Assembly (NCBI GenBank): GCA_963978095.1
Contig: CAXBQP010000066.1
Coordinates: 1 to 13,070, forward strand
Direction: 5' to 3'
Length of the DNA: 13,070 bases
Source: an uncultured bacterium
GTDB lineage: Bacteria > Gemmatimonadota > Gemmatimonadetes > Gemmatimonadales > Gemmatimonadaceae
Below the pieces are notes generated by a model. It saw nothing but the letters and a program-made list of their open reading frames with translations. It searched no databases and was not told the DNA's origin. Shown in pieces: positions 7,120 to 9,527 of the stretch. The position numbers and the translations under genes were made by a program. Position 1 is the stretch's first letter; the number at the start of each line of letters is the position of its first letter.

Positions 7120-7887
7120 ATGCCAGAACTGAAGCCGACGTCGATTGCGGGGAGCGTATTGCCGTTGCAGGCCGCCGAGGAGTTGGTGGCCAGTTTGAGC
7201 GATGTGGTGAGTGCGCGGATCAGTGCGGACGCGAGCGGGGCGATATCGGCGATCCATGTGTTGGTGGGTGGCGAGACCGCGCCCAAGCAGATGGTGCGGA
7301 ACATCGAGAGTGCGTTGATGGCGCAGTTGGGGTTGCGGGTGGACCACCGGAAGATCAGTGTGGCGCAGCAGGCGCGTGTCGGGGCTGCGGGGGTGGTGGA
7401 GTCGCCGGCGGAGGGGCCGAAGGGGGCACCGATGGCAACGCCGATGGCAACGCCGATGGCGACGCTGGTGCCACAGATTGTGCCGCAGTTGGTGGTGGGG
7501 CGCGCGCTCTACTTTGAGGATGTGGAGATTCGCGGGAGCCGGAGCAAGGGGATGCAGTGTCGGGTGACGCTGCGTCGTGGCGACCAGCACTATGTGGGGG
7601 AGGCCGACGGGTTCGAGAGTGAACGGAGCCGGGTGGAGTTGGCGGCTCGCGCCTGTTTGGCGGCGGTGGTGGAGAGCGGGAAGTTGAGTGTGCCCTTGGT
7701 GTTGGAGGGAGCGCGCGTGGTGCGGTTCTTGGATCGGGATGTGGTGTTGGTGGGGGTCGTGGCGCGGAACGGGCGTGACCACGTGGTCTTGATGGGGAGT
7801 TGTCCGGTGCGCGACAGCGCGGAGACGAGTGCGGCGCTGGCGGTGCTGGACGCGACGAACCGATGGATGGATGGGGTGAAGGGGTGA
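7120..7887 (+). CDS. Hypothetical protein: small N-terminal alpha/beta domain, low-complexity linker, C-terminal (beta-beta-beta-alpha)x2 LeuA-regulatory-like domain
   Basis: Long ORF with a conserved-looking N-domain (VVSARI...IHVL...PKQMVRNIESALMAQLGLRVDHRKISVAQ). The C-terminus has two strand-strand-strand-helix units (CRVTL...VGEADG...ELAARACLAAV; VVLVGV...LMGSCPV...AALAVLDATNR). The fold assignment is by eye. Start is ATG 7120 (alternative GTG 7075). Confidence 0.75.
   Translation: MPELKPTSIAGSVLPLQAAEELVASLSDVVSARISADASGAISAIHVLVGGETAPKQMVRNIESALMAQLGLRVDHRKISVAQQARVGAAGVVESPAEGPKGAPMATPMATPMATLVPQIVPQLVVGRALYFEDVEIRGSRSKGMQCRVTLRRGDQHYVGEADGFESERSRVELAARACLAAVVESGKLSVPLVLEGARVVRFLDRDVVLVGVVARNGRDHVVLMGSCPVRDSAETSAALAVLDATNRWMDGVKG
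7429..7464 (+). repeat. In-frame 12-bp tandem repeat x3 encoding (PMAT)3
   Basis: CCGATGGCAACG CCGATGGCAACG CCGATGGCGACG. Confidence 0.9.
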
Positions 7888-8052
7888 GTGTGGTGGTGCG
7901 TGCTGATGGACCCCCGAACTCGGCGAGGATTATAGAGGAGAGTTAGCGACCCCCGACTCCGGCAGAGCGAAGCTGAGCGGGCCACAAGCAGGAGAGCGGA
8001 GCCAACCTGATGGAGCGTCGTCCGGCGACTGCCGGCGGCGACTGAAATCATG

Positions 8053-8060
8053 GGAGGTGA
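8053..8060 (+). promoter_or_regulatory. Strong Shine-Dalgarno sequence
   Basis: GGAGGTGA, 7 nt upstream of ATG 8068. Confidence 0.8.
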
Positions 8061-8067
8061 ATCTCAA

Positions 8068-8139
8068 ATGGCCCTTCTGGCGATGTTGATCATGAAGTTG
8101 TTCTCGTTTGTGCTGGGTGACGCAGTGACTTGGACCTGA
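8068..8139 (+). CDS. Unannotated 23-aa hydrophobic peptide MALLAMLIMKLFSFVLGDAVTWT
   Basis: ATG 8068 to TGA 8137-8139, with a near-perfect SD at optimal spacing. It fills the intergenic gap and is below the ORF-track length cutoff. Confidence 0.75.
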   Translation: MALLAMLIMKLFSFVLGDAVTWT

Positions 8140-8171
8140 GCTGGTGTCGGGGGTTCTCCTTTCTACCGCCA

Positions 8172-9527
8172 ATGAACGAACAGCGCGTTCTGCGTTTTGT
8201 CACGGTGACCGTTGGCTGCGCCCTGTTGGCGGCCGGCGTGGTGTATGCGTACGGTCCGGCCGTCAGTCCGGCACACGTTCGATCGTCGATGTTCTTCGCC
8301 TCCGTCGGCCTGTTGGCGTTGGCACTGGCGTACCAAATGCCGGTCGGGGTTTCCGGGAACATCAGTTTCATTCCCTTCCTGAGCGCGTTGGCGCTTGGGC
8401 CGGGCCCCGTGCTGGTCGTGAGCGTCGCGATGGCGATCGCGACGAGCGAAGCGATGCATCGACGGACGAAGCTCAAAGCCGTGTTCAATGTGGCACAGTA
8501 CACGCTCGCGATCTCGGTCGCGTCGTTGACCTACCTGATGTTGGGGGGGCAGCGCATCGACCCGAAGAACGGTGCGTGGTTCATTCTGCCGTTCGTCGCG
8601 AGCTATGCGACGTGGTTGGTCATCAATACGGCCGCCGTCAGCGGCGTCATCGCGACCGCATCCGGAAAAGCGATGTTGCCGACCTGGCGCCAGGTGGCCG
8701 GCGGCGCGGTGTTGTACGATCTGCTTGCGGTGCCGGTGGTTTACGGATTCGCCTACGTGTACGCGCGGTGGGGCGGCGGCGTCGCCGCCGGCGTGGCGGT
8801 ACCGCTCTTCGGGCTCCGACAGTTGTACAAAACCAACTATCAGCTCGAGACCATCAATCAAGAACTGTTGCAGCTGATCGTGCGCACGGTGGAAGCGCGA
8901 GATCCGTACACCTCGGGTCACTCCGAGCGCGTGTCACGATATGCGGGCAGGATCTGCAAGATTCTGGCCACCACGTCGAAAGAGTCGCAACAGATCGTCA
9001 AGGCGGCACTCCTTCATGATGTCGGGAAGATCCACGAGGAATTCCATCCGATTCTTCGCAAGCCGGGAAGACTGACGGCCGAGGAGTACGCCATCATGCA
9101 GACGCACTCGGCGAAGGGTGCGGTTCTCGTGGCGACCGTCACGCAGTTCCGCGAACTCGCGCCGGCCATCCGGGCGCACCATGAGGCGTGGGATGGCACG
9201 GGATATCCGGATGGACTTTCCGGCGAACGCATCCCGCTTGCCGCACGCATCATTGCGGTGGCGGACACGATCGATGCGATGTCCACGGATCGCCCGTATC
9301 GCGACGCGTTGCCTCCGGATGCGATACGGCATGAGCTCTTGGCTCAGAGTGCGCGCCAGTTCGACCCGTCGTTGATTTCCCGCGTGACCGCGGGCGAACA
9401 GTGGACGTTGCTTGCCGACGAGATCGTGCGTGCGTCGACGGAAATCCCGGTCATGAAGCGCGCGACGCCTTTCGCGGAGGCGCGCACGGGCTCGGCGATC
9501 GGGGCCGAGGGGGCCGTGGCTCCGTAG
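8172..9527 (+). CDS. Membrane-bound HD-GYP domain protein (putative cyclic-dinucleotide phosphodiesterase with a multi-TM sensor domain)
   Basis: The N-terminal ~220 aa are a run of hydrophobic segments (including KAVFNVAQY). The C-terminal domain has RDPYTSGHSERV, LLHDVGKI, HHEAWDGTGYPDGL, RIIAVADTIDAM, DRPYR and QFDP. ATG 8172 is preferred over TTG 8130. Confidence 0.92.
   Translation: MNEQRVLRFVTVTVGCALLAAGVVYAYGPAVSPAHVRSSMFFASVGLLALALAYQMPVGVSGNISFIPFLSALALGPGPVLVVSVAMAIATSEAMHRRTKLKAVFNVAQYTLAISVASLTYLMLGGQRIDPKNGAWFILPFVASYATWLVINTAAVSGVIATASGKAMLPTWRQVAGGAVLYDLLAVPVVYGFAYVYARWGGGVAAGVAVPLFGLRQLYKTNYQLETINQELLQLIVRTVEARDPYTSGHSERVSRYAGRICKILATTSKESQQIVKAALLHDVGKIHEEFHPILRKPGRLTAEEYAIMQTHSAKGAVLVATVTQFRELAPAIRAHHEAWDGTGYPDGLSGERIPLAARIIAVADTIDAMSTDRPYRDALPPDAIRHELLAQSARQFDPSLISRVTAGEQWTLLADEIVRASTEIPVMKRATPFAEARTGSAIGAEGAVAP

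Follow-up and report, generated by a model that had tools for sequence, protein, structure and literature searches.

Small membrane proteins that act on sensors or membrane complexes are known from MgrB and SafA with PhoQ, from KdpF in the KdpFABC complex, and from CydX and AcrZ. Translational coupling through long-range RNA structure has been described for rpmI-rplT of E. coli and for the coat and replicase genes of phage MS2, and the type I toxin mRNAs of hok/sok and aapA1/isoA1 contain a long-distance interaction between their 5' and 3' ends. Dual-function RNAs and leader peptides include RNAIII/delta-haemolysin, SgrS/SgrT, SR1/SR1P and the rhizobial trpL RNA with peTrpL. Among the enzymes of cyclic di-GMP (c-di-GMP), MASE domains are one of the commonest input domains, and to our knowledge their signals are essentially unknown. 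The locus described here stems from an uncultured member of the Gemmatimonadaceae (assembly GCA_963978095.1, contig CAXBQP010000066.1, positions 1 to 13,070 of the forward strand; this whole stretch of 13,070 nucleotides (nt) is referred to as the window). It belongs to the Gemmatimonadota, a phylum which is abundant in soils and waters and of which few regulatory elements have been studied, and it links a conserved structured RNA containing a small open reading frame (ORF) to the gene of a MASE9-HD-GYP protein.

The locus is composed of three co-oriented parts on the plus strand. The gene of P0001, a two-domain protein of 255 residues, spans positions 7120–7887 according to its translation, with an alternative GTG start at 7075. 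A gap of 284 nt separates it from the gene of P0002, the MASE9-HD-GYP protein of 451 residues (8172–9527). Within this gap lies the entire structured RNA (7937–8159, about 220 nt), as delimited by alignments, folds and the covariance model R1, and inside the RNA a small ORF of 23 codons (8068–8139), whose stop codon is followed exactly 32 nt later by the ATG of the HD-GYP gene. The original prediction, made from the letters of the window, had named an upstream hypothetical protein, a potentially structured leader with a 23-residue peptide ORF behind a strong Shine-Dalgarno sequence, and a multi-transmembrane HD-GYP protein with intact metal-binding motifs. This description proved right in every particular, including places, strand, ORF, Shine-Dalgarno sequence and the 32-nt gap. 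The arrangement is far beyond chance. Every locus of sufficient length again shows the small ORF within its folded RNA.

A conserved structured RNA enclosing a small ORF

The synteny on which the original prediction depended is found both among relatives of the window's genome and in a wider set of named sequences. Of 61 relatives, 50 carry P0001 and 57 have HD-GYP-type matches. Thirty loci were taken around the best HD-GYP matches. In 26 of them both large genes lie side by side in the same orientation, and the remaining four loci end at a contig end at most 262 nt upstream of the HD-GYP match. A small ORF preceded by a Shine-Dalgarno sequence is present between both genes in all 26 loci, with its start codon 5–7 nt past this sequence in every case. 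The distance from P0001 to the HD-GYP gene measures 239–342 nt in 23 loci and about 1.08 kb in three, the latter because a response-regulator gene (HTH_17 and REC) is inserted between P0001 and the RNA. Such a regulator of 200–231 residues, with an HTH_17 and a receiver domain, stands between the P0001 homologue and the RNA in L120 and in L051, L053 and L056 of family f2 (f1–f12 being the codes used here for families of the phylum) and is possibly an extra regulator of the module. The counts include four unpublished genomes, G006 and G036 in the tallies of relatives (locus L046 belongs to G036) and G103 and G141 in the phylum sample, and no claim rests solely on any of them.

The best 80 named loci selected by P0001 carry the names Gemmatimonadota, Gemmatimonadales, Gemmatimonadaceae or Gemmatimonas, except for one titled 'bacterium', and one P0001 homologue is named as a Gemmatimonadetes bacterium protein. 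R1, which was built from the 5' part of the element only (136 positions), matches directly downstream of the P0001 homologue in 74 of these 80 loci; the other six end less than 200 nt past the gene. Where at least 700 nt of downstream sequence is available in a named locus (54 cases), the HD-GYP gene comes next in 53. In the window's own genome R1 has one match. Across the phylum it matches in 85 of 151 sampled genomes, as a single copy in 84 and in two copies in one, distributed over f1 (23/31), f2 (55/71), f3 (2/2), f5 (1/1) and f6 (3/6), with none in f7–f12 (0/38). This count is a lower bound, because R1 missed divergent elements of the same layout that were recognized by eye 3' of P0001 homologues in f7, f11, f12 and one f2 genome. 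Thus the order of protein, RNA with ORF, and HD-GYP gene holds across several classes of the Gemmatimonadota, usually with one copy per genome.

Second copies of the module were encountered four times. Three consist of a P0001 homologue and an HD-GYP gene, two of them with a small ORF in between, and the fourth shows RNA, ORF and HD-GYP gene at a contig end. In a single genome (G015; L109, 8150–8830) P0001, an RNA with intact clamp helix (described below) and a 17-codon ORF are kept together with an HD-GYP remnant ORF of about 70 codons. Two conserved blocks of the RNA are altered in this genome, for example from GAGCGGAGC to GAGCTGAGC. P0001 homologues accompanied by neither RNA nor HD-GYP gene occur at two loci (L113 and L115), in f4 and f9. 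At a further locus (L117, genome G129) an ORF with a strong Shine-Dalgarno sequence lies about 450 nt 3' of a P0001 homologue; the sequence upstream of this ORF is different and is not matched by R1.

The RNA is closed by a long-distance helix, P1, here termed the clamp. Its 5' strand CCCCCGACTCCGGC (7950–7963) pairs with the 3' strand GCTGGTGTCGGGGG (8140–8153), which begins one base past the stop codon of the small ORF. The helix is extended outwards by the purine run GGAGAG (7937–7942), pairing with TTCTCC (8154–8159) in the minimum free energy fold of 7930–8175 as well as in duplex predictions for relatives; the 3' side of this extension comes to within some 18 nt of the HD-GYP ATG. Both outer helices are contained in the minimum free energy fold. 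The clamp encloses conserved blocks with AGCG motifs, a covarying hairpin, a perfect 8-nt Shine-Dalgarno sequence and the 23-codon ORF. Directly inside its 5' strand follows a purine-rich block with two AGCG motifs, AGAGCGAAGCTGAGCGGGCC (7964–7983), whose alignment columns are invariant or nearly so and for which no pairing partner was found. Similar AGCGRAGCG blocks are present in distant lineages. A second block, GAGCGGAGC (7994–8002), occurs in 26 of 26 loci with invariant alignment columns, and a local hairpin (8016–8040) is predicted by RNAalifold.

Evidence for the clamp comes from shuffling, covariation and comparison between lineages. In 17 of 26 loci none of 200 shuffles reaches the duplex of 5' and 3' strand, and in 22 at most 2 do; the duplex fails this comparison in L043 (reached by 32/200) and L048 (81/200). 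In the independent named set of 59 loci, no shuffle out of 100 reaches it in 38 and at most 2 do so in 50. For clamp and hairpin together, 90.4% of cells are paired in 16 sequences of f1, as compared with 37–46% when the partner strand is slid, and 11 of 22 pairs are changed on both sides; none of 500 shuffles reaches any of these measures, a test which is inflated by kinship as the covariation counts are taken from related sequences. For the hairpin 8016–8040 taken by itself, changes on both sides are seen in 7 of 8 pairs, and 95% of cells are paired. Within a locus, the own 5' and 3' strands pair with a mean of -35.4 kcal/mol, against -26.4 kcal/mol for strands combined across loci. In f12 the clamp is formed by GGCTGACACTCGAA with TTCGAGTGTCAGCC and in f7 by CCCCCCGGTCCACC with GGTGGTCCGGGGGG, both different in sequence and still complementary, and further sequence variants are found in f2 and f3. 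As far as sequence comparison can tell, this wholesale replacement of the clamp between lineages with complementarity kept is the strongest argument for the helix.

Certain features of the RNA are restricted to some lineages. Past the clamp, a U-run is seen in f11, f12 and part of the f2 loci. The end of the third block can base-pair, in f2, f3, f7 and f12, with the stretch that separates the Shine-Dalgarno sequence from the start codon of the small ORF, each lineage using sequences of its own. A candidate helix covering the Shine-Dalgarno sequence is recurrently predicted, and in f2, f3 and f6 it is reached by at most 10 of 200 shuffles in 11 of 18 loci.

Searches with the Rfam 15 covariance models gave no match at E values up to 1, neither in the window nor in ten diverse loci, and this includes the c-di-GMP-I and c-di-GMP-II riboswitches, tmRNA and 6S RNA; ARAGORN detected no tRNA or tmRNA. 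It is therefore unlikely that the element is a known riboswitch. What the data support well is a structured, covarying RNA family missing from Rfam, and the potentially structured leader of the original prediction is now given shape by the covarying 5'-3' helix and the hairpin. Among metatranscriptomes, a single run shared words with the stretch (share 0.06). A contig of 179 nt from a metatranscriptomic library equals 7972–8150 without a difference, and yields neither ends nor strand nor level. The flanking genes are not covered in this metatranscriptome, which, as contigs are concerned, is neither a sign of a separate transcript nor a measure of level.

The small ORF encodes the hydrophobic peptide MALLAMLIMKLFSFVLGDAVTWT, which ends in DAVTWT, and is itself part of an ORF of 29 residues (8050–8139). 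The extended Shine-Dalgarno sequence GGAGGTGA (8053–8060) precedes its ATG by 7 nt, bearing out the strong ribosome-binding site and the 23-residue peptide ORF that had been noted. This sequence followed by an ATG within 4–8 nt is found at only five sites in the genome of 2.98 Mb, one of which is the small ORF. The four other perfect sites (C11:44453–44471, C15:40284–40302, C22:17580–17598 and C55:4820–4838 of this genome, G000) are possible signs of further genes that are small or strongly translated. Within f1, a Shine-Dalgarno match of at least 6 nt precedes the small ORF in 18 of 22 loci, all of them scoring 8. Start codons in the named set (n=69) are ATG in 57 cases, GTG in 10 and TTG in 2.

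The substitution pattern is of the coding type. In 15 ORF pairs of equal length and 70–99% identity, which are not independent of each other, codon differences in frame amount to 55 synonymous versus 76 non-synonymous, as opposed to 23 versus 99 and 10 versus 116 in the two shifted frames, and third codon positions are the most variable (84 changes versus 59 and 45). The 97 distinct peptides are 15–35 residues long with a median of 23. Tryptophan is the last or next-to-last residue in 89 of them, and in 64 the motif [DE]x3W closes the sequence, followed by one residue at most. Their mean hydropathy is 1.08, in comparison with -0.17 and -0.08 in the other frames, and their net charge is mostly -1 or 0. 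The Trp codon is retained where the neighbouring clamp strand differs in sequence, and therefore it is not explained by clamp pairing. Judged by these signatures the small ORF is very probably translated in cells, and it represents a conserved small-protein gene whose 15–35 codons may escape routine annotation.

Two further interpretations of the peptide were considered and rejected. A split gene, in which the peptide would be the detached first helix of the MASE9 domain, was dismissed because 54 residues precede profile position 40 in P0002, which is room enough for this helix. The [DE]x3W end recalls the E-x3-Y motif of PqqA; however, no modifying enzyme expected for the precursor of a modified peptide or cofactor was seen in the window or among conserved neighbours. 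As regards an attenuator of the trpL type, there is one conserved Trp codon, placed at the end of the ORF, the U-run is confined to some lineages, and shuffling of the helix covering the Shine-Dalgarno sequence established no mutually exclusive alternative pairing.

The flanking proteins and the wider locus

The search of the membrane domain of P0002 against MASE-type profiles identifies it as MASE9 (Pfam PF20972), with 36.7 bits at a cut-off of 24.3 and residues 55–197 covering profile positions 40–178 of 203. It is the single MASE9 match in the whole genome. The C-terminal part matches HD_5 (E 1.4e-32) and HD (E 3.2e-20), and twelve residues are invariant in 31 homologues (H250, H282, D283, K286, H312, H336, H337, E338, G344, Y345, P346 and D365). 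These comprise the HD, HHE and GYP residues, in agreement with the intact metal-binding motifs noted before, and by profile and residues P0002 is classified as carrying an HD-GYP phosphodiesterase domain. The authors of the study on MASE9 propose that ligands bind within the membrane, and they describe the periplasmic segments of the domain as short and poorly conserved (bioRxiv 10.1101/2021.11.05.467447).

No Shine-Dalgarno sequence stands before the ATG of the HD-GYP gene. A match of at least 5 nt to the anti-Shine-Dalgarno sequence is missing upstream of the ATG in all 22 f1 loci. The region in front of the start codon is pyrimidine-rich, and the 3' strand of the clamp runs into it. The stop codon of the small ORF is separated from the HD-GYP ATG by a short distance of constant size (median 31 nt), and in 24 of 26 loci pairing is predicted to begin inside this stop codon or at most 3 nt past it.

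P0001 matches no Pfam and no NCBIfam family at E values up to 0.01. Its structural model (predicted local distance difference test, pLDDT, 83.2) shows an N-terminal domain with the predicted order alpha-beta-beta-alpha-beta, whose matches are generic ferredoxin-like folds with Z scores of 8–9, and a C-terminal domain predicted to consist of two beta-beta-beta-alpha units, similar to the regulatory domain of LeuA and citramalate synthase. For this C-terminal half, Foldseek returned 3hps, 1sr9, 3fig and 3f6g with a probability of 1.00 and E values of 1.2e-4 to 6.6e-4, and VIA-align superimposed 110 residues onto 3f6g_B with a Z score of 9.3 and a root-mean-square deviation of 3.3. The LeuA_dimer profile of Pfam gave no match to P0001, so that the label 'LeuA-regulatory-like' of the original prediction stands for the fold and not for the sequence. 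Matches to folds resembling a double-stranded-RNA-binding domain and ribosomal protein S5 are weak. Homologues number 3,928 at E values up to 0.001, and the best 120 of these are without a Pfam domain and named 'hypothetical protein', apart from one 'predicted Ser/Thr protein kinase'. The Atlas clusters of P0001 are unnamed and stem from Gemmatimonadota. The linker between the two domains (window about 7420–7460) is of low complexity, with three tandem repeats of PMAT; in homologues its length and composition are very variable, ranging from none to about 100 residues.

In the window the module is part of a longer series, which runs from gcvT (aminomethyltransferase, 4217–5371) and the gene of a sigma-54 activator through P0001, RNA with ORF, and HD-GYP gene to a convergent gene for an AAA_16/STAND NTPase of 1055 residues (window 4217–6959 and 9529–12696 for the outer genes). 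This wider order is kept across families of the phylum, as of 19 loci compared 15 have gcvT, 16 the activator gene and 13 the convergent STAND NTPase gene. With conservation reaching this far, gene order by itself argues only weakly for a functional link. The ORF of the sigma-54 activator has 591 residues and overlaps the end of gcvT, and the similarity of its homologues sets in at about residue 70. By this comparison its true start is probably near 5391, with 5184–5390 in question, and the version of 522 residues retains all domains. Other neighbours are an AhpC/TSA peroxiredoxin (1012–1479), an ABC1 atypical kinase (2136–3533, minus strand) and a small ORF that weakly resembles methyltransferases (3565–4167, minus strand).

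A scan of both strands from 6800 to 9800 gave no sigma-70 promoter-like site and two terminator-like sites, where 2.0 are expected. As these counts are zero or at chance level, neither a promoter nor a terminator can be named. With a sigma-54 consensus, six matches were obtained at up to two mismatches (4.88 expected), none of them on the plus strand between the P0001 gene and the RNA; the adjoining sigma-54 activator is therefore without demonstrated link to the module.

Proposed mechanism and rival explanations

Taken together, the layout suggests a folded small mRNA or leader of about 220 nt that is specific to the Gemmatimonadota. Its clamp, adjacent to the HD-GYP start, would be opened by translation, and its peptide would work alongside the MASE9 sensor in the membrane. 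We give this reading roughly an even chance. A ribosome finishing the small ORF would have to melt the clamp, which could either free the initiation region of the HD-GYP gene or leave the terminating ribosome about 30 nt away from it. As judged from the geometry, synthesis of the HD-GYP protein would thereby be coupled to translation of the small ORF. In the lineages with a U-run (f11, f12 and some of f2), clamp and U-run could possibly form a terminator unless a ribosome prevents termination, and the clamp, with about 20 base pairs when its extension is counted, could just as well serve as a stem for processing. The peptide, in which an acidic residue precedes the near-terminal Trp by four positions, would form a hydrophobic helix and stay in the membrane, where it probably acts with the MASE9 domain and would modulate the hydrolysis of c-di-GMP.

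That the peptide is a ligand or membrane partner of the sensor was the central claim of the original prediction. It gains indirect backing from synteny, from the duplication of whole modules and from a weak result in co-folding. When residues 1–230 of P0002 with the MASE9 domain were co-folded with the peptide, a score of 0.58 was predicted, compared with 0.01 for the best of three controls; to satisfy the minimum of 30 residues, the peptide chain was lengthened at its N-terminus by seven residues from the upstream frame. At least 97% of contacts are common to the runs, and the partner pLDDT is at least 69. The mark applied is reached by 116 of 157 solved complexes and by 2 of 215 mismatched pairs, and the passing scores up to 0.60 comprise 18 of the 157 solved complexes and both mismatches. 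Support from the model for binding of the peptide to MASE9 is accordingly weak.

Several observations weigh against a coupled leader with a membrane-acting peptide. A co-fold pass of this weak class is more often wrong than right unless the interaction is likely beforehand, and a hydrophobic helix placed on a membrane domain is an easy false positive. Peptides of 15–17 residues are too short to span the bilayer. The AGCG blocks are strongly conserved and have no place in the coupling model, and in f1 a helix covering the Shine-Dalgarno sequence of the small ORF is reached by at most 10 of 200 shuffles in none of 27 loci. The metatranscriptomic contig has a depth of 3.2, and carry-over of DNA is possible. 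Finally, the situation in G015 implies that RNA and peptide are able to outlast the enzyme, unless the HD-GYP gene was lost recently.

The AGCG blocks would find a function if the element were a cis-regulatory leader to which a trans factor, P0001 or a small molecule, binds at these blocks and thereby controls translation or termination, the small ORF being a mere leader ORF and the peptide itself functionless. Such a leader would be consistent with the AGCG-type blocks being the most conserved bases and lacking a pairing partner, with a P0001 fold that is used elsewhere for amino-acid binding, and with P0001 travelling with the RNA, also in G015 without HD-GYP gene and in duplicated modules. 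The possible pairing of the third-block tail with the spacer behind the Shine-Dalgarno sequence in f2, f3, f12 and f7, by sequences that differ, and the U-run past the clamp in f11 and f12 point in the same direction. However, a mere leader ORF has no need of the constraint seen on the peptide (Trp in 89/97, [DE]x3W in 64/97, hydrophobicity and an excess of synonymous changes). Moreover, the RNA matches no Rfam family, the RNA-binding-like fold matches of P0001 are weak, and its homologues occur without the RNA in the two examined loci L113 and L115, which renders this explanation rather unlikely. An independent dual-function small RNA or small mRNA, produced or processed into a stable RNA of its own, acting through its peptide, its purine-rich blocks or both on targets other than the adjacent HD-GYP gene and neighbouring it merely by inherited order, has to account for the fact that all four second copies place RNA and ORF, or its site, directly before an HD-GYP gene, three of them with a P0001 homologue. 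It also has to account for the short and constant spacing of about 31 nt (median) between ORF stop and HD-GYP start, for the lack of an own Shine-Dalgarno sequence of the HD-GYP gene in f1 and for the HD-GYP gene being next in 53 of 54 loci. Despite a clamp that joins both ends as in many stable RNAs, the 179-nt contig from an RNA library matching the element, the persistence of RNA and ORF in G015 after the loss of HD-GYP, and the conservation of the wider order as well (gcvT 15/19, sigma-54 activator 16/19, STAND NTPase 13/19), it is considered unlikely.

Two further explanations concern the peptide more directly. A short hydrophobic ORF with a strong Shine-Dalgarno sequence, enclosed by a 5'-3' helix, is what would be expected of a type I toxin-antitoxin-like system, in which the mRNA of a hydrophobic toxin is held inert by a long-distance interaction. 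Here, in contrast to the patchy and often multi-copy or mobile occurrence of such systems, the module is single-copy, vertically inherited and fixed in its place across several classes, its four second copies carry neighbouring genes along, and the peptides are mostly neutral or of charge -1 and as short as 15 residues; in addition, no antisense promoter-like site was detected in 6800–9800 and no conserved antisense feature was seen in the alignments. A toxin is thus very improbable. The same holds for an exported precursor of a cell-cell signalling peptide, which the HD-GYP receptor would sense from outside. This analogy had been drawn from the position of the small ORF beside the gene of a membrane sensor. 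The statement that the window encodes no protease or exporter applies to the genes identified in its 13 kb, and neither exporter, protease nor modifying enzyme was found among these or among the neighbours in 19 loci. No basic N-terminus or leader-like segment was seen in the 97 peptides of 15–35 residues, some of which reach only 15–17 residues, and the periplasmic segments of MASE9 are short and poorly conserved according to the authors of its description (bioRxiv 10.1101/2021.11.05.467447). These findings lend no support to the analogy to exported precursor peptides, and its probability is slight.

The coupled leader with a membrane-acting peptide can also be combined with a function of P0001 and of the AGCG blocks. 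In this extended form, P0001 would sense a small molecule by way of its LeuA-regulatory-like domain, bind the AGCG blocks and set the translation of the micro-ORF, and the Trp-ended peptide would be an intramembrane ligand of MASE9 that gates c-di-GMP hydrolysis. As a complete chain this is a long shot. If true, it would assign the first ligand to a MASE-type domain, define a new class of RNA-binding regulator and introduce a self-made peptide as an input to second-messenger turnover, and the three parts would form one phylum-wide switch of undescribed kind. Irrespective of this, a MASE9-HD-GYP protein tied phylum-wide to a conserved micro-peptide offers a testable candidate for a membrane-embedded partner or ligand, and the position of the ORF within the helix provides a clean system in which translation of a micro-ORF may remodel an RNA and control the next gene.

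Comparison with known systems

In the literature surveyed, mostly at the level of abstracts, no description was found of this RNA, of this peptide or of any small protein that acts on an HD-GYP enzyme. The closest resemblance of the peptide is to the small membrane proteins MgrB, SafA, KdpF, CydX and AcrZ, as in each case a very short hydrophobic peptide acts, or is proposed to act, on a larger membrane protein inside the membrane. Like kdpF, the small ORF is situated directly before the gene of the proposed partner. In contrast to this group, the proposed partner is a MASE9 c-di-GMP phosphodiesterase, the peptide is shorter (15–35 residues) with a [DE]x3W end, and its mRNA is enclosed by a conserved RNA structure that shows covariation and includes unpaired blocks, which are likewise conserved.

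With rpmI-rplT and the coat and replicase genes of MS2, the locus would share a downstream initiation region engaged by long-distance pairing which the ribosome on the upstream ORF has to open. Here the stop codon abuts the helix and the downstream start is without a Shine-Dalgarno sequence. Unlike in these systems, the upstream frame is a micro-ORF of 15–35 codons and the helix closes the whole element, and coupling is suggested by the geometry. In the mRNAs of hok and aapA1, too, end-to-end pairing of the RNA encloses a short ORF for a hydrophobic peptide behind a strong ribosome-binding site. In contrast to these, the present element is single-copy, fixed and vertically inherited across the phylum, no antisense partner was seen, its peptides are not basic, and the HD-GYP gene comes after it (53 of 54 loci).

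RNAIII, SgrS, SR1 and the trpL RNA resemble the element in that a structured RNA encodes a very short peptide, and its conserved unpaired blocks could serve a second function at the level of the RNA; the element shares no sequence or Rfam relationship with them. Similarly to the c-di-GMP-I and c-di-GMP-II riboswitches, a conserved structured RNA with an outer closing helix stands before the gene of a c-di-GMP enzyme; the element, however, gave no match to any Rfam family at E values up to 1, and its outer helix encloses a probably translated ORF, unlike that of known aptamers. Measured against these systems, the element belongs to none of the families compared. What is new is the combination of an RNA absent from Rfam, a Trp-ended micro-peptide and an ORF inside the closing helix, together with the constant pairing of this element with a MASE9-HD-GYP gene and a LeuA-regulatory-like protein.

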